The notes under the pieces were generated by a model. That model was given only the letters and a program-made list of their open reading frames with translations. It made no database searches and was not told the DNA's origin. Positions 3,323 through 28,933 of a DNA stretch of 64,000 nucleotides are shown here, in pieces. Every line of letters starts with the position of its first letter. Position 1 is the first letter of the stretch. The stretch is from Carpediemonas membranifera BICM (taxonomy: Eukaryota > Protista > Fornicata). The stretch is from positions 1 to 64,000 of the forward strand of contig JAHDYR010000041.1 of the NCBI GenBank assembly GCA_019828565.1, given 5' to 3'. Both the position numbers and the translations under genes were made by a program.

Positions 3323-3355
3323 GCTCCTTGCCGGTTCCGGTCAACAACTACTTAC

Positions 3356-10073: not shown

Positions 10074-10113
10074 GGTAAGATTGCTTACCTTACCTTACCT
10101 TACCTTACCTTAC
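10070..10113. repeat. TAAGG/CCTTA telomere-like microsatellite with an inversion point
   Basis: gtaaggtaag-attg-(cttac)6. Confidence 0.85.
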
Positions 10114-11105: not shown

Positions 11106-11143
11106 ATACTGTCCAGGGTTCAGGAATTTCCCTTATTGGGTAG

Positions 11144-11179
11144 GGGAATTTCCTCGGGCTTTCCCCCGAGGAAATTCCC
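11144..11179. other. Perfect 15-bp hairpin
   Basis: gggaatttcctcggg-ctttcc-cccgaggaaattccc. Confidence 0.8.
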
Positions 11180-11304
11180 TAGCATTTCGACTCGGTAAGA
11201 AAAAAAATAAATCAACAACGAGCTGTATTCATAATCTATAAATGAGGTTGAATACATGCCTACACATGAGGACTACTCATGCGTAGTTTTGAGCTTTAAA
11301 TCCT

Positions 11305-11968
11305 GATTTGCTGTTTTAACTCAATGTAAGGGAAGACGGATGGGGAGAAGTTGCACTTGCGCATTTACCTGTAGGTCCAATAGACAATTTATATCGCGCT
11401 AATAGAAACCGCGCAAGCCGCTTAAGCCAAGCATCCGGCCATCGCGAACCTCCTCCGTTCCTTTCCGCGTGGAACGATGAACAGCCCCGCATCCTTGGCG
11501 ATAATGCGCGAGTTCTTCAGCTGCTCGGCATGATGGTCCCTTGGATGCGGAGGATCCTGGCCTCGCCTGACTTTAACCCCGGGTGCAAGCCCACTAGCAC
11601 CGAGAAGGACCTCCTCGGCAAAGAGCTCGAACAAGACGTGGATTCATCAAGAATGCTTCGTGAGATGTCCAAACGAGCGGTGTACCAGAAAACCCATGCC
11701 AAGATCATTCGTGATCTCATTAAGTACCGGAACCGCGCAGCTCACAATGAGCTTGAGCCCGACACCCTGCCCAAGGTCCTGGAGCTGATCGAGAGCTTGG
11801 CCCAGGCCTTCTCGGTTCCATTGCACAATAACGTCAGGGCGTTCATCGCGCTACTTAAGTCGCCAGTGTCGCTCGTTGCGACAAGTGAACATCATGCGCT
11901 GACGACGAAGGTCAACAGTCTTGAGGATGAGATTGAGAGGCTGCGTAGCGGCGGCCGTAAGACCATGC
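11305..11968 (+). repeat. Duplicate of 33678-34341 (5' HEPN part of the 486-aa gene), truncated by the viral array
   Basis: Near-identical 664 bp; ORF 11530-12003 matches the N-terminus of ORF 33903-35363. Confidence 0.95.
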
Positions 11969-13257
11969 TCAGACTTCTGCGCACGAATCTGCTTGAAGTC
12001 TGAATACCGCGAGATCGCGCGAGGTGCGCGATCTAGCTTATGCTGAGAACGTTTCGACTTCTTAAAGTCGGAAACCTTATAGGACAAAGAAAACTTGTCC
12101 GGGCGGAAAGCCTCATACTCATCCAAACGACGATAACGAAGGTAGTCCTTCAATATCGCCTTCGTGTTAGGATTGCGCATACTAGATATCACGCGATCAT
12201 ACATACGACGTGAGTACGGAGAAAGGGAATCGCGGAACTGCAAGCGTTTCGCAGTAGGGTTGCGGAAAGAGGATGCCCACTTAACGAGATCCTGGTTCTC
12301 GACAGCATCAAACTCAGCCCAAAAGGGCTGCAGACGTCTAGACGTACTGCGAAAATCGGGATGATAAGTTCGAATGAGCTTCGACCACTGCGGAGCATCG
12401 GACGAATACTGCAGATGCTTCATCGCATAAGGATAAAGCGACTTAGGATTGTGATAACGCGCATTACGAAGAGGCGCTGCTGGGGGCACATAAACGCCGG
12501 CGAGGCGATCAAACGCCTCGTCGCGCTTCTCCGGGACAGACGACCGAGCCTTACGAACAAGAGGAGCAGTAGGTCTCCGCTTACGAGGAGGAGCGCTCTG
12601 TCGAGCAGGAGGAGCAGCGTCCTCTTCCGGACGCTGCTCAATGGGACCAAGGGCAGGCTCGGGAACAGAACGGTGATCGGGAGCATTCATGATTGGAACC
12701 GAGAGATAGACATGCCCCAAAATAGGGTCACGGTAGGAACGCAGCACCTTGCCTGCGTCCTGGTGAACCGTAAAAAAGGCATTACGATGCTTACCAAGAG
12801 TACGCACAATACCTGGCATATCGTCCAAAACTGACATAACATGAAGAGTGTTATGCCCAGGCTGATACGGCTTCGGCTGCTGGCTGTCAGGAACAGAACT
12901 GACAACGTCGCGCAAATAAATTGCGGACTTCAGCCAGCCTTCCTTCAGCGCAGAATCCTTAGTAGGAACCTCGCGAAACCACTTGCCAAAAGCAAGCTTC
13001 GTCGCAGGATCTCCAGACTTGAAGGCAAGATCATGAACCGCAGAAAGAGTATTCATGCGAACTTCGCCCGACTTAATGTAGCGAAGCAAATCACCGACGG
13101 CCGCATAATCATGCGAGCCAGGTCCAATAGAATCGCCGTACGGAGCAAGCCCGCCGGCTGACTTCTTATTGGAAAGATAATCGATTACGTCACCACGTAA
13201 ATCGGAGTCACTGACATACGAACGCACAAAAGCATCCCAATCAACGTCAGATGACAT
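11967..13257 (-). pseudogene. Viral PLA2-like/Arg-rich protein, copy 1 (3'-truncated at the integration junction)
   Basis: Matches 18215-19675 up to the junction; the ORF runs on into flanking DNA to 11851. Confidence 0.85.
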
Positions 13258-13369
13258 CGCGCAGCAAAAAACAACAAATAAGCGCCAGGTGCACTACAGC
13301 GCACCCTGACGCTCTCCTCTACCGAGAGGAATTGACCAAAAAACAGACCTATAAATGCCGGGGACAGTG

Positions 13370-13469
13370 GCCAATTCCCGCTAGTAATATTAAGGGCGCA
13401 TTTCAGCACACGACAGTTTAAGGTAAACTTAAACTGCGCGCGCTTCGCGCCCTTCTAGCGGGAATTGGC
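13370..13469 (-). promoter_or_regulatory. Viral rolling-circle origin 1 (TAATATTAC on the minus strand, 13384-13392)
   Basis: Nested stems gccaattcccgctag/ctagcgggaattggc, aagggcgc/gcgccctt and cagtttaag/cttaaactg, between divergent genes. Confidence 0.85.
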
Positions 13470-13548
13470 TACTCATTTCTGAATCATTCAAAATGAGATG
13501 GATTGCAAATCCTGGATCGAGATTTGCGCAGTTTTGGGTGGGTCAGAA

Positions 13549-14403
13549 ATGCAAGCGAAGACGTGGTTTCTAACATACCCACGTTGGAACGCGGATAGTC
13601 CTACAGAGTTCCATGAAATCATGCAAGGCATCACTCTATTACTTGACAAAGAATTTAACAGAGAATACGTCGCTTACGTCATCGCTCGAGAGAAACACCA
13701 CGACCCCGAAGACTCCGACGAATCGTGTAACTTGCACTATCACATCTTCCTGAAACTTAACAACAAATTAAGATGGAACGCAAAGACATCACCTCATGCA
13801 TGGGATCTATGGGGCAATCACCCAAACGTGCAAACGTGTAGATCGCCCGACGCAGTCGTGAAATACTGCCAGAAGGAGGGGGATTACGAAGCCGACGGGG
13901 TTAACCTAGAGAGCCGAGCCAAGAAGCGAAAGGCATATAATCTCGAGATGTTCACCAGAGACCCGCTGGATCTGGTGAAAGAGGGCCTAGTTAACCCAGC
14001 ACAATACCTTAACTGTGTTAAGGCGCAGGCTCACTACAAACTACACGCAGAGCCCCAGACTCACGCAGAAGGCACCAGAGGCATCTGGATCTGGGGCGAA
14101 CCAGGAGTTGGAAAGTCGCACGCCGCAAGACACGAATACGGCGAAAGCATCTTCGTTAAGGCTCAGAATAAGTGGTGGGACGGCTACAAGGGCGAAACGG
14201 TAATCATTCTGGATGACCTAGACACACCTGTGCTGAACCACTACCTCAAAATCTGGGCAGACAGATGGGCTTGCTCCGGTGAGGTGAAAGGCTCAACTGT
14301 GCCACTCAGGCACGAGACGTTCATCGTCACGTCAAACTATCCAATTGAGCACTTCACAGACGGGGACAATGCAATGAGAGAGGCGCTGACGAGGGAGGTT
14401 TAA
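13549..14403 (+). CDS. rep: CRESS Rep copy 1 (C-terminal +1 G frameshift near 14393 removes the RRF Arg finger)
   Basis: FLTYP, LHYH, YCQK, GEPGVGKS, ILDDL, VTSN. Start MQAK preferred over 13498 because of the shared gtcagaaATG context. Confidence 0.95.
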   Translation: MQAKTWFLTYPRWNADSPTEFHEIMQGITLLLDKEFNREYVAYVIAREKHHDPEDSDESCNLHYHIFLKLNNKLRWNAKTSPHAWDLWGNHPNVQTCRSPDAVVKYCQKEGDYEADGVNLESRAKKRKAYNLEMFTRDPLDLVKEGLVNPAQYLNCVKAQAHYKLHAEPQTHAEGTRGIWIWGEPGVGKSHAARHEYGESIFVKAQNKWWDGYKGETVIILDDLDTPVLNHYLKIWADRWACSGEVKGSTVPLRHETFIVTSNYPIEHFTDGDNAMREALTREV

Positions 14404-14839
14404 GGTGAGACACCTACAGAAGATGAAAGAGAGAATGTAAAGACTAACGAACAATTTAAGCAATCGAAGATTGGCCTGATATTGGCTAGAGCAGAAGGTA
14501 TAATAGCCGAGGGGGTTGACGCGTATAGCGCAACAATAAGGGAAAAGCGTGGGTTCAAGTGAGAAAAAAGAACACCACGTGCTATCAAAAAAAGACTTGG
14601 GTTCGAGCCCAAGACAGATAGGAGAAATGCCACCCGGCTTCGCCGGGCGGACTTTGGGAAATCCGTATAGTAAATCATATCTAGATAAATCTAGTAGATT
14701 TCCTGGATACGGTGGTCAGCTAGATTTAAGAAAAATCTTGACCAAAGTGATTTGATATAATAAAAATGAGACGATTCGCAATCTCGACACCGTCGACACC
14801 GCGATCTCGCAAAACCCGCCGGGCCATAAGAACCACGAA

Positions 14840-15463
14840 ATGGTTTGTTGACTGATATGCCCCGTCGAGGGCTGGGGTGTATCAAAACGATGTTTATATA
14901 GGATCAACACGCTCACGTTCAGTTCTCTCCGTCAAACTCCGATGTTCGTTTCACTTAGCGTTTTCACCCAGTTCAGCACCCAGCAGCTTAGGGTCGAGGA
15001 CCTTCCGACCCTGGAACCTCACCAGGACACGCCTGAGGGTCAGCGCCTCCTCTCCGACGACTCCCTCTTCAGCACGCCGCCTGAAGCCAGCATGTACGAT
15101 CTATGGAGCGCTCCGCAAACTCCTGACCTCTCCCGCTGCCGGCAGAAGCTGAATTTTCAGGATTACCTGAAGACGACTGAAAGCGAAGAGGAAGACGATG
15201 ACTTGTTCATCGAGCATGAGCCGGCAGGGGACGACTGCGACATGGAATGGAATCCGGGGTACACCAGCGACGAAGTCTGGGAGCGCTACGTCGCAACATG
15301 TGAGCGCGTAGGTACGATCTGGCCTAGAGTAGAGGTCATATCCCGTTGGAAGGAGGAGGAGCCAGAGGGAGAGGATGAGCTTCAGCGCTTCATCTGGAGC
15401 TGGTTCACGGATGACCAGCTCCAGAACGTGCCCTCGTGGCTGAGAGAGCACGAGTTCGAATAA
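14840..15463 (+). CDS. Viral acidic protein, spliced: join(14840-14842,14902-14943,14972-15463), 178 aa
   Basis: Introns GTTTGT..TAG (59 nt) and GTTCGT..CAG (28 nt), conserved in position and phase across divergent alleles. Confidence 0.8.
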
Positions 15464-15809
15464 AGACTGATAATGTTTATGTTGTTTCGGGCCTCCGACT
15501 GCCCAGTAAAACTGGGACGGCCCTTTATATCTTCAGCTTTTCATTGCATTCCCGGCGTTCGCTACGTACCTCCGCTCAGGCTTTCGCCGGCTATCTTACG
15601 CGCTATCGCGCGCGCTGCTGCGCGAGCTATGTAAATGGGGCCCCTCCCCCATTTATGGGGTTTCCGAATTAACGTAAAGAGTCGTGTTCACATTTAAGTG
15701 CAGATCAAAATTTGAATTAATCAAAATGAGATGGATCGCAAATCCCGGATCACTTTTTTGATCTCGACACACGACGACACCACAAAACGCAGTTTTACCC
15801 GAGTCAGAA

Positions 15810-16418
15810 ATGAACGAGAGAGCAAAAGACGAACAAAACCTCGTAGAGCAACTGGAAACAGCTGCCAAATGGTTCCCAACGATGTATATTCCGCATTTCC
15901 AACGCGAAATCGAAAAAGCACTACACAATAGCGCACAACCCGTTTATCCGCTAGAAACTGCGAACAAAACGAGCCTCAAGAACTGGTACTTCTCATGGAT
16001 GACACAAGAAGACAGACCGACAAACGTTTTCGCTAAGCAACTCGCTAACAAACTAAGAGAAGGAACTATCACAGTTCGCGCAACAGCGCTGACCGATGGT
16101 GGGCCATGGACGACAATCTACCACTGCGAAATACACTCTGCAAGCCGCATCTCGGGTAAAATGCTCGCAACAACAGTAACAGAGGTCGCGAGAGATAACG
16201 GCGTCATAACATCAGTGACGATGGCATACAAGCAGCCGCAATTCCGCGACTACCGCATCACTGAAGGATATGCCCACGAACCAAACGACAAATCAATTCT
16301 AATGACAGTCGAAGGCACGAGGGCCATATACTCAGAAAAAGCAGTCGTCGAAGAAGAAGAAGACACAAGACAACTAGAGGTGACACAAGAAGGTCATGGA
16401 TTTAATTTGCATAAATAA
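15810..16418 (+). CDS. Viral hypothetical protein (202 aa), copy 1
   Basis: Length conserved with the divergent copy 22224-22832; shares its leader motif with rep. Confidence 0.85.
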   Translation: MNERAKDEQNLVEQLETAAKWFPTMYIPHFQREIEKALHNSAQPVYPLETANKTSLKNWYFSWMTQEDRPTNVFAKQLANKLREGTITVRATALTDGGPWTTIYHCEIHSASRISGKMLATTVTEVARDNGVITSVTMAYKQPQFRDYRITEGYAHEPNDKSILMTVEGTRAIYSEKAVVEEEEDTRQLEVTQEGHGFNLHK

Positions 16419-17394
16419 TGGTAATACCAATACCAGGGGTTTGGACAGTATCGCCGTCTGGGACGACCATAGGCAGAAACGCCTTGTAACGATCAACAGA
16501 AAAAGGATCTGTTGTCTTCTCAATCAAATGCAGGTTGCCCGCATTGGGAGTGCCAACTACCTTCCATTCAAGATCATATGGGGCAACAAACAAGCACTCG
16601 GGGCTAATCCCGGGAGAAAGAGAATGCTGCCTCTCCAAGGGCATCAACATAGGATCCCACGACGGAGTACCAGGAGGAAGAGAGCTACCCTCCGTATCCA
16701 ACTGAACGCGGAGGTCAGACGGAATAAAATAGGTATCAACAAACAGCACACAGGGAGATGACTTAGAAGTCAACTCTTGACCTGGGAGCCTATAACGCTG
16801 AAGCTGAATCAAGTTCACGCCAGACTCATAGTTGATAGCAACCGAGAGAGACGACGACCCATCGTCATGAGTAACAACACGAGAAACACACGGATGACGA
16901 TCAATCAAATGCAACTGAGTTGCCTTTCTACCTACAGGGAAATCGTTCGAATCGCCACCATAGATAGTCAGAAATGGGGGGTCGGGAACAAACGCTGGAC
17001 GCGGCTGGAAGGTGGACCCAGTCCACCCACCATCACCATCAACGACGCGAATGCCAGCGAGAGAAGAAGATTCTTCCAGAGCAGAAACAATTTCCTGCTC
17101 GACTGCGCCCGGCTCAAGAAAAGCCGAGCCAGAAGCAGTCTCCATCAAACCAACATTCATAAAGCCGTTAACGACGAACACTCCAAAACAAAAGCCTTGA
17201 TCACACTGCTCATCCGGCGTAATCGGATCGCCGGAAGCATTACACATACGAGCATAACCAGAGCAGGAAGTAAGCGTCTTCACCTTCTGACCATAACTAT
17301 GCATATCATCGTAACGAACACCAACAGTAGCATGCTCGCCAAATCGCAAAACATGCTCATTGTAAGCCGACAACGCGTTCGACGGATAACTCAT
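16402..17394 (-). CDS. Viral protein (330 aa) downstream of the capsid; candidate second structural or protruding-domain protein
   Basis: Protein nearly unchanged in copy 2 apart from an in-frame deletion; same frame as the capsid ORF. Confidence 0.8.
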   Translation of the reverse strand: MSYPSNALSAYNEHVLRFGEHATVGVRYDDMHSYGQKVKTLTSCSGYARMCNASGDPITPDEQCDQGFCFGVFVVNGFMNVGLMETASGSAFLEPGAVEQEIVSALEESSSLAGIRVVDGDGGWTGSTFQPRPAFVPDPPFLTIYGGDSNDFPVGRKATQLHLIDRHPCVSRVVTHDDGSSSLSVAINYESGVNLIQLQRYRLPGQELTSKSSPCVLFVDTYFIPSDLRVQLDTEGSSLPPGTPSWDPMLMPLERQHSLSPGISPECLFVAPYDLEWKVVGTPNAGNLHLIEKTTDPFSVDRYKAFLPMVVPDGDTVQTPGIGITIIYAN

Positions 17395-17412
17395 TAACAG
17401 AACAGATCAAGT

Positions 17413-18207
17413 TTATGTAGAAGGAGACAGATAAGACGCAATCGTCTTCTCTGCAGAAGGCATCGAAAACTCAACAGTATACTCGATCCAAAAACGACCG
17501 AGCAGATCGGGGGTAGAACGGGTAGCAGAGCTAGCATAGACAAACTGACCGTTATCAGTACCACGGTCAGGAGCATTCGTAAACTGAGGGTTAGTAGACT
17601 TGCTGGAGGAGCGAACCGGTACGGGCAACGACCAAGAAGACCAGCAAGGACCGGAGGCAGAACATTCGTTCTGCAACATACGAGTGGGATCAACAGGAAC
17701 GGGCTCCAGAGGATTGGGCTCCCACATAATAGTGATAGTGCCAGCGCCCTGAGGAGATTCCTCGGGCTGATAGACAAGGTGAGCAGATACGATCTTGTAA
17801 CGATCGAAGTTCTTGCTCAGCGCATCGAGGCGGTTAAACACATTTCCAACCGTAAAAGGGTGATGACCCATGCCGGACCTATAAATGCCGCCAGCCTGAG
17901 TAATGGCGGCATCCTGGATCTGATAACGACTATCGCGGTAAATCCGATAGTCCACAGCAGGGTGAACAGCCGGGTCTGTACGAGCAGTCACGGGAAACAG
18001 AACCTCGCGGAAGGTCATGCGGAGACGGCCGTTACTCCGGGGCGAGATGATCTTCGTCTTGCGATACACGGACCGACGAAAGGGAAAACGACGCGAAGTA
18101 GTAGCCCGCTTACGCGATGTACGGCGAGGACGACGAGTGAAACCACGACGGGTTCGGCGAGGCCGACGGCTAGACCGACGGCGATTTCTTCTAGCTCCAT
18201 ATGCCAT
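17413..18207 (-). CDS. cap: Capsid protein (264 aa): Arg-rich arm + tombusvirus-like S-domain jelly roll
   Basis: MAYGARRNRRR arm; FREVL, FNRLDALSKNFDRYKIVSAHLVYQP, GTITIMWEPNPLEPVP, DNGQF and LGRFWIEYTVEFSMP match S-domain motifs. Confidence 0.88.
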   Translation of the reverse strand: MAYGARRNRRRSSRRPRRTRRGFTRRPRRTSRKRATTSRRFPFRRSVYRKTKIISPRSNGRLRMTFREVLFPVTARTDPAVHPAVDYRIYRDSRYQIQDAAITQAGGIYRSGMGHHPFTVGNVFNRLDALSKNFDRYKIVSAHLVYQPEESPQGAGTITIMWEPNPLEPVPVDPTRMLQNECSASGPCWSSWSLPVPVRSSSKSTNPQFTNAPDRGTDNGQFVYASSATRSTPDLLGRFWIEYTVEFSMPSAEKTIASYLSPST

Positions 18208-18214
18208 ATTTATG

Positions 18215-19675
18215 TCAATATTTACGCCAACGATAGACCCGCCGAGACTGGCGATATCCACGAGAATTATAATATCTACGATAACGAGGTCGCCACATAG
18301 GAGTGCGCCCAAAATTGCGTGGCTTATACCAACGGGCACCGCGATGGGTGAAAAACTTGGAATGCCAAGTAGGACGGAAGGGGCGACGCTCAGACTTCTG
18401 CGCGCGAGTCTGCTTGAAGTCTGAATACCGCGAGATCGCGCGAGGGGCGCGATCTAGCTGATGAGAGCGTTTCGACTTCTTAAAGTCGGAAACCTTGTAA
18501 GACAAAGAAAACTTGTCTGGGCGAAGAGCCTCATACTCATCCAACCGACGATAACGAAGATAATCCTTCAATATCGCCTTCTGGTTAGGATTACGCATAC
18601 TAGCTATCACCCGATCATACATATGACAGGAGTACGGACTAAGGGAATCGCGAAACTGCAAACGTTTCGCAGTCGGGTTACGGAAAGACGATGCCCACTT
18701 AACGAGATCCTGGTTCTCGACAGCATCAAACTCAGCCCAAAAGGGCTGCAGACGTCTAGACGTACTGCGAAAATCGGGATGATAAGTTCGAATGAGCTTC
18801 GACCACTGCGGAGCATCGGACGAATACTGCAGATGCTTCATCGCATAAGGATAAAGCGACTTAGGATTGTGATAACGCGCATTACGAACAGGCGCTGCTG
18901 GGGGCACATAAACGCCGGCGAGGCGATCAAACGCCTCGTCGCGCTTCTCCGGGACAGACGACCGAGCCTTACGAACAAGAGGAGCAGTAGGTCTCCGCTT
19001 ACGAGGAGGAGCGCTCTGTCGAGCAGGAGGAGCAGCGTCCTCTTCCGGACGCTGCTCAATGGGACCAAGGGCAGGCTCGGGAACAGAACGGTGATCGGGA
19101 GCATTCATGATTGGAACCGAGAGATAGACATGCCCCAAAATAGGGTCACGGTAGGAACGCAGCACCTTGCCTGCGTCCTGGTGAACCGTAAAAAAGGCAT
19201 TACGATGCTTACCAAGAGTACGCACAATACCTGGCATATCGTCCAAAACTGACATAACATGAAGAGTGTTATGCCCAGGCTGATACGGCTTCGGCTGCTG
19301 GCTGTCAGGAACAGAACTGACAACGTCGCGCAAATAAATTGCGGACTTCAGCCAGCCTTCCTTCAGCGCAGAATCCTTAGTAGGAACCTCGCGAAACCAC
19401 TTGCCAAAAGCAAGCTTCGTCGCAGGATCTCCAGACTTGAAGGCAAGATCATGAACCGCAGAAAGAGTATTCATGCGAACTTCGCCCGACTTAATGTAGC
19501 GAAGCAAATCACCGACGGCCGCATAATCATGCGAGCCAGGTCCAATAGAATCGCCGTACGGAGCAAGCCCGCCGGCTGACTTCTTATTGGAAAGATAATC
19601 GATTACGTCACCACGTAAATCGGAGTCACTGACATACGAACGCACAAAAGCATCCCAATCAACGTCAGATGACAT
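18215..19675 (-). CDS. Viral 486-aa protein with N-terminal PLA2-like motifs and Arg/Tyr-rich C-terminus
   Basis: PYGDSIGPG and NTLSAVHDLAF motifs; basic tail RPRYRRYYNSRGYRQSRRVYRWRKY. Confidence 0.8.
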   Translation of the reverse strand: MSSDVDWDAFVRSYVSDSDLRGDVIDYLSNKKSAGGLAPYGDSIGPGSHDYAAVGDLLRYIKSGEVRMNTLSAVHDLAFKSGDPATKLAFGKWFREVPTKDSALKEGWLKSAIYLRDVVSSVPDSQQPKPYQPGHNTLHVMSVLDDMPGIVRTLGKHRNAFFTVHQDAGKVLRSYRDPILGHVYLSVPIMNAPDHRSVPEPALGPIEQRPEEDAAPPARQSAPPRKRRPTAPLVRKARSSVPEKRDEAFDRLAGVYVPPAAPVRNARYHNPKSLYPYAMKHLQYSSDAPQWSKLIRTYHPDFRSTSRRLQPFWAEFDAVENQDLVKWASSFRNPTAKRLQFRDSLSPYSCHMYDRVIASMRNPNQKAILKDYLRYRRLDEYEALRPDKFSLSYKVSDFKKSKRSHQLDRAPRAISRYSDFKQTRAQKSERRPFRPTWHSKFFTHRGARWYKPRNFGRTPMWRPRYRRYYNSRGYRQSRRVYRWRKY

Positions 19676-19786
19676 CGCGCAGCAAAAAACAACAAATAAG
19701 CGCCAGGTGCACTACAGCGCACCCTGACGCTCCTCTACCGAGAGGAATTGACCAAAAAACAGACCTATAAATGCCGGGGACGAGTG

Positions 19787-19886
19787 GCCAATTCCCGCTA
19801 GTAATATTAAGGGCGCATTTCAGCACACGACAGTTTAAGGTAAACTTAAACTGCGCGCGCTTCGCGCCCTTCTAGCGGGAATTGGC
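19787..19886 (-). promoter_or_regulatory. Viral origin 2 (nonamer 19801-19809)
   Basis: Same hairpin and TAATATTAC as origin 1. Confidence 0.85.
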
Positions 19887-19964
19887 TACTCATTTTGAAT
19901 CATTCAAAATGAGATGGATTGCAAATCCTGGATCGAGATTTGCGCAGTTTTGGGTGGGTCAGAA

Positions 19965-20855
19965 ATGCAAGCGAAGACGTGGTTTCTAACATACCCGCGT
20001 TGGAACGCGGATAGTCCTACAGAGTTCAATGAAATCATGCAAGGCATCACTCTCTTACTTGACAAAGAATTTAACAGAGAATACGTCGCTTACGTCATCG
20101 CTCGAGAGAAACACCACGACCCCGAAGACTCCGACGAATCGTGTAACTTGCACTATCACATCTTCCTGAAACTTAACAACAAATTAAGATGGAACGCAAA
20201 GACATCACCTCATGCATGGGATCTATGGGGCAATCACCCAAACGTGCAAACGTGTAGATCGCCCGACGCAGTCGTGAAATACTGCCAGAAGGAGGGGGAT
20301 TACGAAGCCGACGGGGTTAACCTAGAGAGCCGAGCCAAGAAGCGAAAGGCATATAATCTCGAGATGTTCACCAGAGACCCGCTGGATCTGGTGAAAGAGG
20401 GCCTAGTTAACCCAGCACAATACCTTAACTGTGTTAAGGCGCAGGCTCACTACAAACTACACGCAGAGCCCCAGACTCACGCAGAAGGCACCAGAGGCAT
20501 CTGGATCTGGGGCGAACCAGGAGTTGGAAAGTCGCACGCCGCAAGACACGAATACGGCGAAAGCATCTTCGTTAAGGCTCAGAATAAGTGGTGGGACGGC
20601 TACAAGGGCGAAACGGTAATCATTCTGGATGACCTAGACACACCTGTGCTGAACCACTACCTCAAAATCTGGGCAGACAGATGGGCTTGCTCCGGTGAGG
20701 TGAAAGGCTCAACTGTGCCACTCAGGCACGAGACGTTCATCGTCACGTCAAACTATCCAATTGAGCACTTCACAGACGGGGACAATGCAATGAGAGAGGC
20801 GCTGACGAGGAGGTTTAAGGTGAGACACCTACAGAAGATGAAAGAGAGAATGTAA
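19965..20855 (+). CDS. rep: CRESS Rep copy 2 (intact)
   Basis: All HUH and SF3 motifs including RRF. Confidence 0.96.
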   Translation: MQAKTWFLTYPRWNADSPTEFNEIMQGITLLLDKEFNREYVAYVIAREKHHDPEDSDESCNLHYHIFLKLNNKLRWNAKTSPHAWDLWGNHPNVQTCRSPDAVVKYCQKEGDYEADGVNLESRAKKRKAYNLEMFTRDPLDLVKEGLVNPAQYLNCVKAQAHYKLHAEPQTHAEGTRGIWIWGEPGVGKSHAARHEYGESIFVKAQNKWWDGYKGETVIILDDLDTPVLNHYLKIWADRWACSGEVKGSTVPLRHETFIVTSNYPIEHFTDGDNAMREALTRRFKVRHLQKMKERM

Positions 20856-21252
20856 AGACTAACGAACAATTTAAGCAATCGAAGATTGGCCTGATATTGG
20901 CTAGAGCAGAAGGTATAATAGCCGAGGGGGTTGACGCGTATAGCGCAACAATAAGGGAAAAGCGTGGGTTCAAGTGAGAAAAAGAACACCACGTGCTATC
21001 AAAAAAGACTTGGGTTCGAGCCCAAGACAGATAGGAGAAATGCCACCCGGCTTCGCCGGGCGGACTTTGGGAAATCCGTATAGTAAATCATATCTAGATA
21101 AATCTAGTAGATTTCCTGGATACGGTGGTCAGCTAGATTTAAGAAAAATCTTGACCAAAGTGATTTGATATAATCAAAATGAGACGATTCGCAATCTCGA
21201 CACCGTCGACACCGCGATCTCGCAAAACCCGCCGGGCCATAAGAACCACGAA

Positions 21253-21879
21253 ATGGTTTGTTGACTGATATGCCCCGTCGAGGGCTGGGGTGTATCAAAA
21301 CGATGTTTATATAGGATCAACACGCTCACGTTCAGTTCTCTCCGTCAAACTCCGATGTTCGTTTCACTTAGCGTTTTCACCCAGTTCAGCACCCAGCAGC
21401 TTAGGGTCGAGGACCTTCCGACCCTGGAACCTCACCAGGACACGCCTGAGGGTCAGCGCCTCCTCTCCGACGACTCCCTCTTCAGCACGCCGCCTGAAGC
21501 CAGCATGTACGATCTATGGAGCGCTCCGCAAACTCCTGACCTCTCCCGCTGCCGGCAGAAGCTGAATTTTCAGGATTACCTGAAGACGACTGAAAGCGAA
21601 GAGGAAGACGATGACTTGTTCATCGAGCATGAGCCGGCAGGGGACGACTGCGACATGGAATGGAATCCGGGGTACACCAGCGACGAAGTCTGGGAGCGCT
21701 ACGTCGCAACATGTGAGCGCGTAGGTACGATCTGGCCTAGAGTAGAGGTCATATCCCGTTGGAGGGAGGAGGAGCCGGAGGGAGAGGCAGAACTGAACCA
21801 CTTCATTTGGACGTGGTTTACCGACGAGCAACTCCTAAACGTGCCCTCATACCTGAGAGAGCACGAATTCGATATGTAA
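21253..21879 (+). CDS. Viral acidic protein copy 2: join(21253-21255,21315-21356,21385-21879)
   Basis: Same splice sites as copy 1; C-terminus diverged. Confidence 0.8.
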
Positions 21880-22223
21880 ACATTCTGAGTATTTAAGTTG
21901 TTTCGGGCCTCCGACTGCCCAGTAAAACTGGGACGGCCCTTATATTTTCAGCTTTTCATTGCATTCCCGGCGTTCGCTACGTACCTCCGCTCAGGCTTTC
22001 GCCGGCTATCTTACGCGCTACCGCGCGCGCTGCTGCGCGAGCTATTTAAATGGGGCCCCTCCCCCATTTATGGGGTTTCCGAATTAACGTAAACAGTCGT
22101 GTTCACAATTAAGTACAATCAAACCGTTTGAATTAATCAAAATGAGACGGATCGCAAATCCCGGATTGCTTTTGATCTCGACACACGACGACACTACAAA
22201 CCGCAGTTTTACCGGAGTTAGAA

Positions 22224-22832
22224 ATGAACGACAGAGAGAAAGAAGACCAAATCCTCATAGAGGAAATCGAAACTGCCGCAAAACAGTTTCCGCCTATGTA
22301 CACTGCACATTTCCAACGCGAAACCGAACAAGTACTGCACAACAGCACTCAACATGTCTATCCCTTGGAAACAGCTAACAAAACAAGCCTCAAGAACTGG
22401 TACTTCTCATGGATGACACAAGACAACACCGCGACAGACGACTTCGCTCTGCAACTCGCTCAGAAACTAACAGAAGGCACGATTACGGTCCGCGCAACAG
22501 CACTGCTCAATGGCGGACCATGGACGACAATGTACCACTGCGAAATACACTCTGCAAGCCGCATCTCAGGGAAGATGCTCGCAAAAACAGTCAGAAAAGT
22601 CGCAAGAAACAACCCGGTGATAACATCAGTGACTACGGCATACAAGACGCCACAGTTCTACGACTACCGCATAACTGAACCATATGCCCACAAACACAAC
22701 GACAAATCAATTCTCATGACAGTCGAAGGCACGAGGGCCATATACTCAGAAAAAGCAGTCGTCGAAGAAGAAGAAGACACAAGACAACTAGAGGTGACAC
22801 AAGAAGGTCATGGATTTAATTTGCATAAATAA
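22224..22832 (+). CDS. Viral hypothetical protein (202 aa), divergent copy 2
   Basis: Many substitutions over the first ~160 aa; identical C-terminus. Confidence 0.85.
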   Translation: MNDREKEDQILIEEIETAAKQFPPMYTAHFQRETEQVLHNSTQHVYPLETANKTSLKNWYFSWMTQDNTATDDFALQLAQKLTEGTITVRATALLNGGPWTTMYHCEIHSASRISGKMLAKTVRKVARNNPVITSVTTAYKTPQFYDYRITEPYAHKHNDKSILMTVEGTRAIYSEKAVVEEEEDTRQLEVTQEGHGFNLHK

Positions 22833-23763
22833 TGGTAATACCAATACCAGGGGTTTGGACAGTATCGCCGTCTGGGACGACCATAGGCAGAAACGCCTTG
22901 TAACGATCAACAGAAAAAGGATCTGTTGTCTTCTCAATCAAATGCAGGTTGCCCGCATTGGGAGTGCCAACTACCTTCCATTCAAGATCATAGGGGGCAA
23001 CAAACAAGCACTCGGGACTAATGCCAGGAGAAGGAGAATGCTGCTTCTCCAAAGGCATCAACATAGGATCCCAAGACGGCGTACCAGGGGGAAGAGAGCT
23101 ACCCTCCGTATCCAACTGCACACGGAGGTCAGACGGAATAGAATAGGTATCAACAAACAGCACACAGGGAGATGACTTAGAAGTCAACTCTTGACCTGGG
23201 AGCCTATAGCGCTGAAGCTGAATCAAGTTCACGCCAGACTCATAGTTGATAGCAACCGAGAGAGACGACGACCCGTCGTCATGGGTAACAACACGAGAAA
23301 CACACGGATGGCGATCAATCAAATGCAACTGAGTTGCCTTTCTACCGACAGGGAAATCGTTCGTTGGACGCGGCTGGAAGGTGGACCCAGTCCACCCACC
23401 ATCACCATCAACTACGCGAATACCAGCGAGAGAAGAAGATTCTTCCAGAGCAGAAACAATTTCCTGCTCGACTGCGCCCGGCTCAAGAAAAGCCGAGCCA
23501 GAAGCAGTCTCCATCAAACCAACATTCATAAAGCCGTTAACGACGAACACTCCAAAACAAAAGCCTTGATCACACTGCTCATCCGGCGTAATCGGATCGC
23601 CGGAAGCATTACACATACGAGCATAACCAGAGCAGGAAGTAAGCGTCTTCACCTTCTGACCATAACTATGCATATCATCGTAACGAACACCAACAGTAGC
23701 ATGCTCACCAAATCGCAAAACATGCTCATTGTAAGCCGACAACGCGTTCGACGGATAACTCAT
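22816..23763 (-). CDS. Viral 330-aa protein copy 2 (315 aa; 45-nt in-frame deletion)
   Basis: Alignment to 16402-17394. Confidence 0.8.
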   Translation of the reverse strand: MSYPSNALSAYNEHVLRFGEHATVGVRYDDMHSYGQKVKTLTSCSGYARMCNASGDPITPDEQCDQGFCFGVFVVNGFMNVGLMETASGSAFLEPGAVEQEIVSALEESSSLAGIRVVDGDGGWTGSTFQPRPTNDFPVGRKATQLHLIDRHPCVSRVVTHDDGSSSLSVAINYESGVNLIQLQRYRLPGQELTSKSSPCVLFVDTYSIPSDLRVQLDTEGSSLPPGTPSWDPMLMPLEKQHSPSPGISPECLFVAPYDLEWKVVGTPNAGNLHLIEKTTDPFSVDRYKAFLPMVVPDGDTVQTPGIGITIIYAN

Positions 23764-23781
23764 TAACAGAACAGATCAAGT

Positions 23782-24576
23782 TTATGTAGAAGGGGACAGA
23801 TAGGACGCAATCGTCTTCTCTGCAGAAGGCATCGAAAACTCAACAGTATACTCGATCCAAAAACGACCGAGCAGATCGGGGGTAGGACGGGTAGCAGAGC
23901 TAGCATAAACAAACTGACCGTTATCAGTACCACGGTCAGGAGCATTCGTAAACTGAGGGTTAGTAGACTTGCTGGAGGAGCGAACCGGTACGGGCAAGGA
24001 CCAAGAAGACCAGCAAGGACCGGAGGCAGAACATTCGTTCTGCAACATACGAGTGGGATCAACAGGAACGGGCTCCAGAGGATTGGGCTCCCACATAATA
24101 GTGATAGTGCCAGCGCCCTGAGGAGATTCCTCGGGCTGATAGACAAGGTGAGCAGATACGATCTTGTAACGATCGAAGTTCTTGCTCAGCGCATCGAGGC
24201 GGTTAAACACATTTCCAACGGTAAAAGGGTGATGACCCATGCCAGACCTATAAATGCCGCCAGCCTGAGTAATGGCGGCATCCTGGATCTGATAACGACT
24301 ATCGCGGTAAATCCGATAGTCAACAGCAGGGTGAACAGCCGGGTCTGTACGAGCAGTCACGGGAAAGAGAACCTCGCGGAAGGTCATGCGGAGACGGCCG
24401 TTACTCCGGGGCGAGATGATCTTCGTCTTGCGATACACGGACCGACGAAAGGGAAAACGACGCGAACTAGTAGCCCGCTTACGCGATGTACGGCGAGGAC
24501 GACGAGTGAAACCACGACGGGTTCGGCGAGGCCGACGGCTAGACCGACGGCGATTTCTTCTAGCTCCATATGCCAT
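23782..24576 (-). CDS. cap: Capsid protein copy 2
   Basis: As copy 1, with two visible amino-acid changes. Confidence 0.88.
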   Translation of the reverse strand: MAYGARRNRRRSSRRPRRTRRGFTRRPRRTSRKRATSSRRFPFRRSVYRKTKIISPRSNGRLRMTFREVLFPVTARTDPAVHPAVDYRIYRDSRYQIQDAAITQAGGIYRSGMGHHPFTVGNVFNRLDALSKNFDRYKIVSAHLVYQPEESPQGAGTITIMWEPNPLEPVPVDPTRMLQNECSASGPCWSSWSLPVPVRSSSKSTNPQFTNAPDRGTDNGQFVYASSATRPTPDLLGRFWIEYTVEFSMPSAEKTIASYLSPST

Positions 24577-24583
24577 ATTTATG

Positions 24584-25141
24584 TCAATATTTACGCCAAC
24601 GGTAGACCCGCCGAGACTGGCGATATCCACGAGAATTATAATATCTACGATAACGAGGTCGCCACATAGGAGTGCGCCCAAAATTGCGTGGCTTGTACCA
24701 ACGGGCACCGCGATGGGTGAAAAACTTGGAATGCCAAGTAGGACGGAAGGGGCGACGCTCAGACTTCTGCGCGCGAGCCTGCTTGAAGTCTGAATACCGC
24801 GAGATCGCGCGAGGGGCGCGATCTGGCTGATGAGAGCGTTTCGACTTCTTAAAGTCGGAAACCTTGTAAGACAAAGAAAACTTGTCTGGGCGAAGAGCCT
24901 CATACTCATCCAACCGACGATAACGAAGATAATCCTTCAATATCGCCTTCTGGTTAGGATTACGCATGCTAGATATCACCACGGCCGCATAATCATGCGA
25001 GCCAGGTCCAATAGAATCGCCGTACGGGGCAAGCCCGCCGGCCGACTTCTTATTGGAAAGATAATCGATTACGTCACCACGTAAATCGGAGTCACTGACA
25101 TACGAACGCACAAAAGCATCCCAATCAACGTCAGACGACAT
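24584..25141 (-). pseudogene. PLA2-like protein copy 3 with a ~903-nt in-frame internal deletion
   Basis: 185 vs 486 aa; the junction lies at an ATCACC microhomology near 24975-24980. Confidence 0.85.
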
Positions 25142-25258
25142 CGCGCAGCAAAAAACAACAAATAAGCGCCAGGTGCACTACAGCGCACCCTGACGCTCCT
25201 CTACCGAGAGGAATTGACCAAAAAAAAAACCCGGAGCTTAAAATGCCGGGGCCAGGGG

Positions 25259-25358
25259 GCCAATTCCCGCTAGTAATATTAAGGGCGCATTTCAGCACAC
25301 GACAGTTTAAGGTAAACTTAAACTGCGCGCGCTTCGCGCCCTTCTAGCGGGAATTGGC
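25259..25358 (-). promoter_or_regulatory. Viral origin 3 (nonamer 25273-25281)
   Basis: Same hairpin as origins 1 and 2. Confidence 0.85.
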
Positions 25359-25435
25359 TACTCATTTGAATCATTCAAAATGAGATGGATTGCAAATCCT
25401 GGATCGAGATTTGCGCAGTTTTGGGTGGGTCAGAA

Positions 25436-26326
25436 ATGCAAGCGAAGACGTGGTTTCTAACATACCCGCGTTGGAACGCGGATAGTCCTACAGAGTTCAA
25501 TGAAATCATGCAAGGCATCACTCTCTTACTTGACAAAGAATTTAACAGAGAATACGTCGCTTACGTCATCGCTCGAGAGAAACACCACGACCCCGAAGAC
25601 TCCGACGAATCGTGTAACTTGCACTATCACATCTTCCTGAAACTTGACAACAAAATAAGATGGAACGCAAAGACATCACCTCATGCATGGGATCTATGGG
25701 GCAATCACCCAAACGTGCAAACGTGTAGATCGCCCGACGCAGTCGTGAAATACTGCAAGAAGGAGGGGGATTACGAAGCCGACGGGGTTAACCTAGAGAA
25801 CCGAGCCAAGAAGCGAAAGGCATATAATCTCGAGATGTTCACCAGAGACCCGCTGGATCTGGTGAAAGAGGGCCTAGTTAACCCAGCACAATACCTTAAC
25901 TGTGTTAAGGCGCAGGCTCACTACAAGCTACACGCAGAGCCCCAGACTCACGCAGAAGGCACCCGAGGCGTCTGGATCTGGGGCGAACCAGGAGTTGGAA
26001 AGTCGCACGCCGCAAGACACGAATACGGCGAAAGCATCTTCGTTAAGGCTCAGAATAAGTGGTGGGACGGCTACAAGGGCGAAACGGTAATCATTCTAGA
26101 TGACCTAGACACGCCTGTGCTGAACCACTACCTGAAAATCTGGGCAGATAGATGGGCTTGCTCCGGTGAAGTGAAAGGCTCGACTGTGCCACTCAGGCAC
26201 GAGACGTTCATCGTCACGTCAAACTATCCGATTGAGCACTTCACAGACGGGGACAATGCAATGAGAGAGGCGCTGGTGAGGAGATTCAAGGTGAGACACC
26301 TACAGAAGATGAAAGAGAGAATGTAA
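25436..26326 (+). CDS. rep: CRESS Rep copy 3 (intact, slightly diverged)
   Basis: All motifs present; YCKK and LVRRF variants. Confidence 0.96.
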   Translation: MQAKTWFLTYPRWNADSPTEFNEIMQGITLLLDKEFNREYVAYVIAREKHHDPEDSDESCNLHYHIFLKLDNKIRWNAKTSPHAWDLWGNHPNVQTCRSPDAVVKYCKKEGDYEADGVNLENRAKKRKAYNLEMFTRDPLDLVKEGLVNPAQYLNCVKAQAHYKLHAEPQTHAEGTRGVWIWGEPGVGKSHAARHEYGESIFVKAQNKWWDGYKGETVIILDDLDTPVLNHYLKIWADRWACSGEVKGSTVPLRHETFIVTSNYPIEHFTDGDNAMREALVRRFKVRHLQKMKERM

Positions 26327-26724
26327 AGACTAACGAACAATTTAAGCAATCGAAGATTGGCCTGATATTGGCTAGAGCAGAAGGTATAATAGCCGAGGGG
26401 GTTGACGCGTATAGCGCAACAATGAGGGAAAAGCGTGGGTTCAAGTGAGAAAAAGAACACCACGTGCTATCAAAAAAAGACTTGGGTTCGAGCCCAAGAC
26501 AGATAGGAGAAATGCCACCCGGCTTCGCCGGGCGGACTTTGGGAAATCCGTATAGTAAATCATATCTAGATAAATCTAGTAGATTTCCTGGATACGGTGG
26601 TCAGCTAGATTTAAGAAAAATCTTGACCAAAGTGATTTGATATAATCAAAATGAGACGATTCGCAATCTCGACACCGTCGACACCGCGATCTCGCAAAAC
26701 CCGCAGGGCCATAAGCACCAAGAA

Positions 26725-27342
26725 ATGGTTTGTGTGCCGATAATGCCCTGCGAGGGCTAGAAGGTATCTAAAACGGTCTTATATAGGTTCAACAAGCTCA
26801 CATCGAGTCCTCTACTTCCGTCGCCGAGGTACGTTACACTTAGACCGTTCACACAGACTATCGAAACTCCGCAGCTTAGCGTCGAACAACTTCCGTATCT
26901 AACTCCTCACAACAGCACTCTGGAGGGACAGCAGCTCCTAAGCGATGATTCCATCTTCTCGACGCCGCCGGAGGCCGATTTCTATGAATCCTGGGGTGCC
27001 CCGGAGACGCCGAACCTCGCAAGAGTCAGACGGCATCTTTTTCTCCCGACAACCATAGAGTCGGACGACGATGACCTGTTCGTTCATCCAGAGCCGGAGG
27101 GGGACGACACGGAGATGGGGTGGATGCCGGAGTACGACGAAGATGAGGTGTGGGAGAAGTATGTAGCGATCTGCGAGACAGTTGGAGTCATATGGCCTCG
27201 CATCGAGGTGATCGAGAGATGGAAGGAGGAGGAGCCGGAGGGCGAGGAGGAGCTGAGACGCTTCCTCTGGAGCTGGTTCACTGACGACCAGCTCAAGAAC
27301 GTGCCCTCTTACCTGAGAGAGCACGAGTTCGATGAATTTTAA
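26725..27342 (+). CDS. Viral acidic protein, divergent allele: join(26725-26727,26787-26828,26857-27342)
   Basis: 59-nt GTTTGT..TAG and 28-nt GTACGT..CAG introns give a full open frame homologous to copy 1. Confidence 0.8.
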
Positions 27343-27583
27343 ATATTCTGAGTAGTTTAGTTGTTTCGGGCCTCCGACTGCCCAGTAAAACTGGGACGGC
27401 CCTTATATTTTCAGCTTTTCATTGCATTCCCGGCGTTCGCTACGTACCTCCGCTCAGGCTTTCGCCGGCTATCTTACGCGCTACCGCGCGCGCTGCTGCG
27501 CGAGCTATTTAAATGGGGCCCCTCCCCCATTTATGGGGTTTCCGAATTAACGTAAACAGTCGTGTTCACATTTAAGTGCAATC

Positions 27584-28933
27584 CAGTATCCATCGAAAAC
27601 TCGATCTACTTCAAGGACGGAGTGCCGATTATCCCCAAGGGAGAGACACGCGACAAGGCCCTTCGGACCGCTCACCAATTTCATACGGGAGCAAATTCAA
27701 CGTTCCAAGCACTCGCCACGTCTGCATTTTGGCCGGGGATGCTCTTGGACGTCAAAAAGCACATCAAGACGTGCCCCATTTGTCTGAAGACTCGCATCAA
27801 GGACTACTTTATCGCCCAAAAGGGCCAGACAAGACGCACCAGACCATGGGAGACAGTGGCAGTCGACACAATTGGCCCTCTCCCAACGGATTCGCTGGGC
27901 GCTCGCTACATCATTGTGGCTGTAGACATGTTTACAAGATACACCGAGCTCGTCGCAGTCGCATCGATCGACGCCGAGACCTCCGCCAGGGCCCTATGGG
28001 ACCACGTTTTCACGCGACACGGGATACCGGCGGAGATTCTGTCCGACGGCGGCCCGGAGTACGCGAACTCGATAGTTGAACAACTCACAACGTCATTGAA
28101 AGTCGCACACCACTTCACCATCCCGTTTCATCCACAGAGCAATGGTCTCGTGGAGAGAAGGAATGCGGAGATTGGAAGACACCTACGGTGGCTTGTCCTG
28201 GCAATAGCCTACAAAGACCAGTGGTGCGGACTCCTACCGACGGTCCAGATGATTATCAACGGCACGACACATACGGCCACGAAGTTCTCCCCGCACGAGC
28301 TGATATTTGGCCATGAGCACAACATGTTTACAAGCTGGTGGACGAACGACAACAACTCTCCGATCAGAGATTTCCCAGAGTTCAAAAAGGACCTGGAGCT
28401 GGCCCTTAACGCCCTGGAGACCACTGCCAGAGAGAGTGTGGGCCCGGGCCAAAAGACAATAGTCAACACCGAACTGAAGCCGGGTGACTACGTCCTCTGG
28501 AAAGATGAGGCCCCTCAGAAGCTAGACGCGCGCAACAGGGGCCCATGGAAGGTACACGATGTACTTGATAATAACAGAATAGTCCTGCAGTCGATACTCG
28601 ACGGATCGACCAGATCAACCCACATTGAAAAACTCATGATGTTCGACACGGATGCCGTAACGGACACGATGATGCTTCAACTTGCAAGCTTCGACCAGAA
28701 AAAATGGGAGGTAGAGCGAGTAGTATCGGTAGACTGGAAAGAAGGGACAGCCGCCATCAAGTGGGTAGGATTCGAAAACATAACGGAAGAACCACTCTCG
28801 GGAGTGAAACACCTCGAGGAGATGAAGAGGTTGGCCCGTAAGGCGAGGAAGAACCTGAAACTCTACTAACCATCTTTTTCCCCCGTTCCTTGCAGGTTGG
28901 GGGTTTTCTCATCAAAAAGGGAGGTAGTGTCAC
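27584..28933 (+). mobile_element. Ty3/gypsy (chromovirus-like) 3' fragment: integrase + chromo-like domain, PPT and LTR start
   Basis: HxxxH...CPIC zinc finger; VAVDTIGP, ILSDGGPEY and SNGLVERRN (DDE); GPW; WEVERV..IKWVGF. Stop at 28869, PPT aaaaagggagg ~28914-28924, TGTCAC at 28928. Confidence 0.9.

Follow-up and report, generated by a model that had tools for sequence, protein, structure and literature searches.

A 64,000-nucleotide stretch of contig JAHDYR010000041.1 from the fornicate metamonad Carpediemonas membranifera BICM (positions 1 to 64,000 of the forward strand; the window) carries at 11968-27583 an array in which copies of an ambisense CRESS DNA virus (circular and Rep-encoding, with single-stranded DNA) of about 6.4 kb, two of them whole and two partial, follow each other head to tail. 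With a probability that we put at roughly 0.7, the array would represent an undescribed crucivirus-like virus, transcribed in four of its six genes, that was recently captured out of a mixed infection into the chromosome. No prior description of this virus was found in the literature searched, which omits most subscription journals. Already known are whole and tandem CRESS integrations in the fornicate Giardia (PMC7493932) and geminivirus-like Rep genes in C. membranifera itself (PMC8516963). New are the distinct genotypes within the array, the transcripts, a relative in seawater, the apparent pairing of the genes for Rep and a 486-amino acid (aa) protein on other contigs, and an origin in which the nonanucleotide is bulged from a rod-like hairpin.

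Layout of the array and divergence of its units

The nonanucleotide TAATATTAC is found three times in the 64 kb, always on the minus strand, at 13392, 19809, and 25281, with spacings of 6417 and 5472 nt. In a self-BLAST comparison, 11967-18611 corresponds to 18388-24980 at 95.9% identity, and a third partial copy reaches 27583. The three origins at these distances in the first-pass annotation are borne out by both results, and its six open reading frames (ORFs) are all present in their proposed places. Partial unit 0 (11968-13383), 98.0% identical to unit 1, consists of the 5' part of the gene for the 486-aa protein, running from 13257 down to 11968 where the left junction ends it, and of intergenic DNA. 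Unit 1 (13384-19800), measuring 6417 nt from nonamer to nonamer, holds all six genes. Unit 2 (19801-25272; 5472 nt) contains two in-frame deletions, 903 bp in the 486-aa gene and 45 bp in a 330-aa gene. Partial unit 3 comprises an origin, Rep, an acidic gene, and intergenic DNA, the last at 27343-27583 up to the right junction, beyond which a Ty3/gypsy-type integrase fragment follows.

Units 1 and 2 are 96.5% identical. Their mismatches are concentrated at 15350-16400, a divergent patch over the C-terminus of the acidic protein and a 202-aa ORF, while large tracts over Rep and the 486-aa gene are nearly identical, with 0-2 mismatches per 250 nt. The divergence of unit 3 is patchy as well, the sites at which it alone differs numbering 19 over 13384-14783 and 181 over 14784-15383. 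The ratio of non-synonymous to synonymous divergence (pN/pS) is below 0.4 in all eight copy pairs compared (range 0.07-0.36), and synonymous changes outnumber non-synonymous ones by 8:2 in the capsid, 18:4 in the 330-aa protein, and 11:7 in Rep. Because the differences are mostly synonymous, the copies diverged under selection, as live viruses, and by their sequences they are distinct, recombined genotypes; recombination among the units came before, or during, assembly of the array. A single integration followed by duplication in place and neutral decay would account for the near-identity of units 1 and 2 over much of their length and for both deletions of unit 2. The predominance of synonymous differences in eight of eight comparisons contradicts it as regards most of the divergence, and it does not agree with patchy divergence in which an acidic allele of 66% identity keeps both introns; we regard it as most improbable. 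Gene conversion may explain the identical tracts between the units.

A complete genome, as claimed in the first-pass annotation, is present only across the boundary of units 1 and 2, where six open genes stand in succession at 14439-20855; within the origin-to-origin units as assembled, Rep of unit 1 is frameshifted and unit 2 lacks the 903 bp. The likeness to the tandem of an infectious clone holds for the head-to-tail, origin-to-origin order of the copies, but the units are different genotypes and not duplicates of one. Head-to-tail strings of two to four similar, non-identical CRESS genomes are also seen in the IMG/VR loci L003, L004, L006, L007, L008, L009, and L012; those strings may be amplification or assembly chimeras.

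Rep, origin, and capsid

Rep contains the domains Gemini_AL1 (PF00799, E 7.5e-8) and RNA_helicase (PF00910, E 3.2e-9), i.e., the HUH nuclease fused to a superfamily 3 helicase which is characteristic of CRESS viruses, and Reps are also matched in the PDB. The helicase part is nearer to circovirus Rep, with E 1.5e-13 for 7lar versus E 0.015-0.029 for two short nuclease-domain entries. The gene is located on the plus strand, and it is open over 296 aa in unit 2 (19965-20855) and in partial unit 3 (25436-26326), the latter Rep being 98% identical to the former. In unit 1 (13549-14403), one extra base near 14393, within a run of G, ends the frame early. The 13 C-terminal residues lost there include an RRF motif that we take to be the arginine finger. 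This frameshift, which had been recognized in the first-pass annotation together with the intact Reps beside it, may be a sequencing error. Translation would most likely start at the second ATG (13549, 19965, and 25436, resp.), because the first lies in a motif common to all three plus-strand genes and because the database protein P0001 starts at the second.

The nearest Reps are P0002 (77%), encoded on a 74,679-nt contig of C. membranifera, and P0003 (56%), encoded on a 7,045-nt Logan contig. All others are about 41% identical or partial matches, and the nearest named ones (about 41%) belong to the chicken and canine stool-associated circular viruses, which are unclassified in the NCBI taxonomy; a close described relative, which would have removed the novelty, was not found. 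In a midpoint-rooted FastTree phylogeny of 148 Reps (matches of at least 250 aa plus the Reps of 17 chosen loci), the window Reps form one clade with P0002, P0003, and P0110 (support 0.94), nested in a clade of 32 of the 148 members (0.97) that includes the two stool-associated viruses. As the tree holds no classified member of Kirkoviridae, Pecoviridae, Vilyaviridae, or any other family, Rep is assignable by it to no named family.

At each of the three origins (13370-13469, 19787-19886, and 25259-25358), about 100 nt of the minus strand are predicted to fold into a 40-bp rod hairpin in which TAATATTAC (13392-13384, 19809-19801, and 25281-25273, resp.) lies as a 7-nt bulge in the 3' arm. The folds have z-scores of -11.0, -11.5, and -10.2; none of 200 shuffles is as good for any of them, and in 325 windows of the unit no hairpin is stronger than the rod. 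The three hairpins are intact and identical. A nonanucleotide at a hairpin origin, as is usual for CRESS viruses, is present once per unit, though in a bulge rather than in the terminal loop, and the fold is not that of a classical stem-loop. Among 47 nonamer sites in the loci fetched, 33 fold as terminal loops and eight as bulges with inner hairpins of few pairs, and in these models the bulged nonamer of the array appears as an extreme form of a recurring design and not as unique. In four loci (L002:912, L003:5186, L007:2302, and L035:2488) the origin loop contains a nested small hairpin with TAATATTAC at its 3' side, a short version of the bulged arrangement. The apex of the hairpin carries TAAGTTTAC, a 7/9 match to the nonamer, which is the less likely nick site compared with the perfect match in the bulge. 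A scan of viral contigs with a 23-nt stretch of the origin found nothing. A CAAAATGAGA-type motif is located upstream of all three plus-strand genes, about 60 nt before the start of the acidic cDNA, and is likely a promoter element or a Rep-binding site. Three more hairpins (z -5.9) are predicted on the minus strand at 14590-14730, in the interval that separates Rep from the acidic gene.

A CRESS Rep combined with a tombusvirus-like capsid defines the cruciviruses; their genomes measure 2,474-7,947 nt, and their capsids usually include a large P (protruding) domain, which as a rule is the largest one, with one truncated case reported among 461 cruciviruses (PMC7468197). The capsid gene of the array is located on the minus strand (17413-18207 in unit 1; 23782-24576 in unit 2, 99% identical in aa) and encodes 264 aa. 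These consist of a basic R arm, with 26 Arg/Lys in residues 1-60 as in the R domain of cruciviruses, and of an S (shell) domain homologous to that of Tombusviridae (Viral_coat, PF00729, E 6.2e-10). The PDB matches are tombusvirid capsids (6mrl, E 2.5e-14; 2zah, E 4.3e-9; 2tbv, E 3.7e-5). A capsid of geminivirus type is not present, the match being to the tombus/sobemo S domain only. The match to 6mrl ends at residue 261 of the 264, so that no P domain follows, and the capsid message is polyadenylated 13 nt beyond the stop codon. Of the crucivirus-like identity proposed earlier, the CRESS Rep and the tombusvirus-type S domain stand, while the P domain typical of cruciviruses is absent. Since this domain is absent and the capsid has no placement in a tree, the virus would be filed as a crucivirus-like variant rather than as a member. 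Capsid relatives among 4401 candidates of 145-462 aa were restricted to the window's own cluster, with no crucivirus capsid among them, and none were found in viral contigs. A capsid model predicted with no alignment (predicted local distance difference test, pLDDT, 36.5) was unusable, and a fold search with it gave nothing at E <= 0.001. The chicken virus, a neighbour in the Rep clade, has a circovirus-type capsid, and this Rep lineage therefore likely acquired its tombusvirus-type capsid, by gain or by exchange.

Transcripts, accessory proteins, and relatives

Five sequencing runs were listed and four were mapped, as contigs only: X1 and X2 from one sample, X5 from another study, and X3, a seawater metagenome. 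X1, X2, and X5 were taken as RNA from the skipping of host introns and from poly(T) ends, none being recorded as RNA. They yielded six, five, and two contigs, resp., one of the two in X5 lying outside the array. A capsid cDNA contig extends from 18213 to 17400, has a poly(T) end, and starts 5' with a non-genomic tag also seen on host messages. The message for the 330-aa protein is separate and starts at 17416; its contigs match unit 1 with no differences across the 45-bp indel. Both introns are removed from the acidic cDNA, which shows the splicing proposed in the first-pass annotation. Pieces of the full-length 486-aa gene are present, and a contig at 24801-25162 spans the 903-bp deletion of unit 2 with no differences. 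Because this junction occurs in cDNA, the deletion is not an assembly error, and long and short 486-aa alleles both exist outside the assembly. Hence, four of the six genes (capsid, 330-aa, 486-aa, and acidic) are transcribed, with two templates or more in use, and the total silence that would have argued for an inert element is not seen. Rep and the 202-aa ORF have no cover in X1, X2, or X5, a blank that carries no weight, and contig depth, being a poor measure, cannot rank expression.

The acidic gene (14840-15463 in unit 1, plus strand) encodes 178 aa with 24% Asp plus Glu and has GT-AG introns at 14843-14901 and 14944-14971. Its counterparts are found at 21253-21879 in unit 2 and at 26725-27342 in unit 3, both on the plus strand; the latter is divergent, with 66% aa identity in the last exon, and retains both GT-AG introns. 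The 202-aa orphan ORF (plus strand, 15810-16418 in unit 1, 22224-22832 in unit 2) shows 80% aa identity between its copies at pN/pS 0.31. For the acidic and the 202-aa proteins no relatives outside the window were found in family libraries and the fetched loci, the only sets scanned. The 330-aa orphan ORF (16402-17394, minus strand) has a 315-aa form in unit 2 (22816-23763, minus strand) owing to the in-frame 45-bp deletion. It found no relatives among 1559 candidates, no usable Atlas match, and no match to the 344-aa ORF of L001; its best PDB hit had E 0.72, and its structure predicted with no alignment (pLDDT 30) was unusable. That it might be a detached P domain is conjecture. The accessory proteins and the capsid had no match in 82 Rep-bearing loci (tblastn, E 0.05), and a PHROGs search and a PDB search with alignment A1 gave nothing significant.

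The 486-aa protein (18215-19675 in unit 1, minus strand) is reduced in unit 2 to a 185-aa remnant (24584-25141, minus strand) by the in-frame deletion at 24980, which shows a short ATCAC microhomology. Five matches were obtained, three of them full or near-full relatives: P0161 (88%), P0162 (36%), and P0163 (35%, on a 4,272-nt contig); scans of viral contigs with the 486-aa alignment and with the capsid found nothing. Conserved in the family are an N-terminal block, within which lie a Gly-Pro-Gly loop and also an H-D helix, and an Arg-rich tail with 30 Arg/Lys in the last 90 residues. The N-terminal block may resemble the phospholipase A2 (PLA2) of parvoviruses. Its motifs are a lead only: in the Atlas features of P0162 residues 1-130, PF09056 clusters rank fourth (0.85, in 31% of members), likewise a lead only; hhalign against 15 PF08398 domains aligns the H-D helix weakly (score 16.1, probability 1.6%, E 0.03), the score exceeding that of all 60 column shuffles (maximum 15.2) at a probability still of 1.6%; and P0162 is first of 635 targets in a PLA2 comparison, but at E 1.5 only. 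A PLA2-like fold would have slightly less than an even chance, and PLA2 activity in this virus a lower one, because Phe replaces a Tyr that is invariant in the parvovirus domains.

X3 gave 24 contigs, some of them short motif matches from other viruses, on 9800-29500, where they cover 20 of 30 bins. Among the matches listed, eight long pieces are 91-96% identical to the array at depths of 3.4-6.3. Parts of the capsid and 486-aa genes, the origin, Rep, and the acidic gene are covered by them. One piece runs across the origin into Rep; another goes beyond 27583 into what lies upstream of the 202-aa gene, as expected of a circular genome. Against 19.9 kb of host genes at 80% identity, X3 had no contigs, which suggests that the relative is a free virus. 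The head-to-tail order of the array and the X3 contigs running past the origin and the right junction are consistent with a circular genome. A further X3 contig, of depth 12.5, at 15710-15752, joins pieces of the 202-aa upstream motif, the origin, and the Rep start with unknown sequence in between; it is possibly from a second, more distant relative in the sample. P0002 (Rep, 77%) and P0161 (486-aa, 88%) are adjacent accessions on the 74,679-nt contig of C. membranifera, while P0003 (Rep, 56%) and P0162 (486-aa, 36%) are each on a 7,045-nt Logan contig. On this evidence, the same two genes, Rep and 486-aa, seem to occur together on a public contig and on a second host contig.

In the reading preferred here, the minus strand of the window would be the virion strand, with Rep encoded on the complementary strand. 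Rep would nick TAATATT/AC where it is bulged from the 40-bp hairpin, and host polymerases would carry out rolling-circle replication. The acidic and 202-aa genes, sharing their upstream motif with Rep, would probably be early helpers; the capsid, 330-aa, and 486-aa proteins would be virion-strand late products from separate messages. The particle would probably consist of a shell with T=3 and of minor virion proteins, among them the 486-aa protein, whose basic tail would hold the DNA and whose PLA2-like domain would perhaps breach membranes. At present, the array would be a transcribed, mostly non-replicating endogenous element.

Alternatively, the array could be latent and inducible. Circles would then be released by Rep nicking from origin to origin, or else through units recombining with each other, and a few cells in which virus replicates could be the source of the transcripts. 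The three intact, identical origin hairpins, the open Reps of units 2 and 3, and the six open genes at 14439-20855, which could loop out by recombination between units, would suit such a provirus. So would the fact that the genes transcribed are late-type genes of the virion strand and the acidic gene; the mosaic capsid contig described below could be a recombinant template, and for tandem geminivirus copies release by replication is an established process, going by the title of the work concerned. Release from origin to origin, however, would yield either unit 1, with Rep frameshifted as assembled, or unit 2, with an open Rep and the 903-bp deletion, so that neither unit is intact. We also know of no integrase and no obligatory provirus among CRESS viruses. 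Furthermore, the only viral contig of X5 within the array, from the capsid, has 240 nt at depth 5.6, compared with 29-3592 in host bins, depth being a poor measure, and the gemini-like Rep genes of C. membranifera are reported as unexpressed in log-phase RNA (PMC8516963). Inducibility is therefore considered unlikely.

Chromosomal setting and comparison with known systems

The right third of the window (46-62 kb) encodes NAD kinase, a methyltransferase, RPL4, a Ras-family GTPase, a longin SNARE, and TIP49. These host genes carry introns of 29-36 nt which are spliced in the RNA runs that also cover the array, and in the assembly the array is colinear with them. At the left junction, a 2-nt GC overlap connects the array to a truncated copy of a host gene, the other copy of which lies at 33678-34348 (99.4%); the right junction adjoins the integrase fragment. 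No target-site duplication was seen at the array ends. Since neither end lies at the origin and each breaks off within viral sequence, in mid-gene on the left, end joining of a concatemer would be favored over Rep-directed insertion. The concatemer would have been formed by co-infecting, recombining genotypes, or else the array would have grown by successive homology-guided additions; entry would have been by end joining into a region rich in repeats and transposons, not at the origin. The copy number elsewhere in the host genome is known from protein records only. The genome paper describes four geminivirus-like Rep genes of C. membranifera on high-coverage scaffolds, with no RNA evidence in the text available (PMC8516963), and in the 10 of its supplementary files that were searched the word "capsid" does not occur, one scanned file being unreadable.

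Several points weigh against the recent capture of a crucivirus-like virus. Neither host-virus junction is bridged by any contig of the four runs mapped, so that integration rests on the assembly; the earlier claim of integration is retained as far as colinearity goes and is weakened by this lack of an independent contig across either junction. The capsid cDNA contig is a mosaic, with unit 1 alleles at eight of ten diagnostic sites and unit 2 alleles at two adjacent ones, which fits expression and merging of both copies, but also another, third template or errors of polishing. Units differ in several places by one base in or beside homopolymers, the Rep frameshift being among these, and such differences may be sequencing errors. 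The absence of host contigs from X3 is possibly false, owing to filtering, low depth, or a host that is less than 80% identical. That P0003 and P0162 appear to share one contig follows from the equal length of 7,045 nt only, and no Pfam match for PLA2 was obtained with the 486-aa protein, its link to PLA2 being weak.

Alternatively, episomal variants or concatemers carried by the culture could have been stitched by the assembler onto a shorter integrated fragment. In line with this, no contig spans a junction, the flanks on both sides consist of repeats, the genotypes of the units differ in the way that a persistent mixed infection would bring about, and the capsid cDNA fits no single assembled copy. 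Yet the junctions are clean, in mid-gene, and show microhomology; the defective 903-bp-deletion allele is present in RNA of another year; and related pieces are found inside duplicated host blocks in the window and on two other contigs. A replicating episome should moreover give Rep RNA, which was unseen according to the genome paper (PMC8516963). We judge an assembly product to be quite unlikely, and even if it were true, the link between virus and host would stand.

To the left of the array, fragments of a distant relative (10516-11143, plus strand) consist of an acidic-gene-like first exon and intron and a Rep piece (42% aa). They form part of a patchwork at 10475-11975, composed of 41 nt of the host gene at 34685, the acidic-like exon and intron, the Rep piece, which is nearly identical to P0110 of another contig, and 671 nt of the same host gene with weak HEPN matches. 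To the right, a fragment of another acidic allele (30880-31331, plus strand; copy at 37872-38322) is carried by a 3.08-kb block present twice at 99.6% identity (29456-32532 and 36447-39522). The whole region of 10-44 kb accumulates fragments of viruses and transposons. At 27584-29382, the Ty3/gypsy-type integrase fragment (rve, H2C2) is accompanied on the opposite strand by a helix-turn-helix transposase-like fragment, and at 41010-42407 there is a Gag-like ORF with a zinc knuckle and an LLDTGA motif, which we take to be aspartic-protease-like. Further left, 6902-9779 comprises 10.3 tandem copies of a 278-bp unit (62% GC, 99% identity), and (CTTAC)6 at 10070-10113, possibly a telomere-type repeat, follows an inverted GTAAG pair just left of the viral fragments. 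Rfam gave no matches in 1-44000, including the 278-bp repeat.

Such a collection could have been kept by the host as an antiviral element, its fragments being transcribed to block related viruses by capsid interference or RNA silencing. The gathering at 10-40 kb of fragments that stem from no fewer than three related viruses and from several transposons, the transcription of structural genes, and the small RNAs against CRESS elements reported in Entamoeba (PMC7493932) would be in line with it. The transcripts, however, are sense, spliced, polyadenylated, and begin at the gene starts of the virus itself, and the array at 91-96% identity to a wild virus is too young to show selection at the level of the host; the idea is distinctly improbable.

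If the array were to release virus, it would be a natural provirus of a single-stranded DNA virus, a state that to our knowledge is not established for Cressdnaviricota. Taken to its full extent, this scenario would describe a new six-gene, fornicate-infecting crucivirus-like lineage with a P-less shell, a separate PLA2-like minor protein, a bulged-nonamer origin, and an inducible heteromeric provirus yielding infectious circles in a culturable host devoid of ORC/Cdc6; the combination is unlikely. The capture reading itself would likely give crucivirus-like viruses their first named host. None is identified in the available text of the earlier survey, in which protists of the SAR group (Stramenopiles, Alveolata, and Rhizaria) are proposed (PMC7468197), and a 2025 paper, as far as available, reports no BLAST matches in host genomes and proposes rotifers from a fold match, while still asking for evidence (PMC11832652). 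A chimeric virus would hence be linked to a protist in culture that does not belong to the predicted SAR group, making particle structure, strandedness, and host range directly testable. C. membranifera, reported in the accessible text to have no canonical replication-initiation complexes (PMC8516963), would also be a test case for the replication and integration of a DNA virus devoid of a polymerase.

The parvovirus VP1u PLA2 (PF08398) has, like the 486-aa family, first a Gly-Pro-Gly loop and after it an A-x-H-D-x-A helix, but in the 486-aa protein the spacing is longer, Phe stands for the invariant Tyr, and the similarity is below significance; furthermore, it is a separate protein and not a capsid extension. 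Infectious clones of Geminiviridae have in common with the array the TAATATTAC nonamer, a Gemini_AL1-type nuclease, a Rep on the complementary strand, and tandem copies from origin to origin, whereas the helicase of the array is nearer to circovirus Rep, its capsid is unrelated, its nonamer is bulged, and its units are unlike and partly defective. The chicken and canine stool-associated circular viruses resemble it in Rep (about 41%; same 32-member clade) and in having multi-ORF ambisense genomes, of 3.8-4.7 kb. Their nonamer-like motif is located in a classical terminal loop, no accessory proteins are in common, and the capsid of the chicken virus is of circovirus type (PF02443, E 2e-7) and not alignable with that of the array.

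Among endogenous elements, those of kirkoviruses and pecoviruses are found in parabasalids and Blastocystis (PMC9615429), and whole CRESS genomes of Vilyaviridae and Naryaviridae are integrated in Giardia and Entamoeba, with a 10-kb tandem element in Giardia (PMC7493932). The latter are alike in that whole genomes reside in anaerobic protists, in tandem in a fornicate relative (PMC7493932), while the virus described here has another capsid type and a larger genome with six genes; its units are not identical, its late-gene messages are shown to be spliced and polyadenylated, and its host is free-living and marine. With cruciviruses it shares the CRESS Rep joined to a Tombusviridae-type S domain, the basic R arm, ambisense organization, size, extra ORFs, and introns (PMC7468197, PMC11832652). 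It differs from them in the absence of a P domain, in four accessory genes, and in the PLA2-like lead, as well as in its likely integration and in a fornicate host, where SAR protists or rotifers have been proposed for cruciviruses (PMC7468197, PMC11832652).

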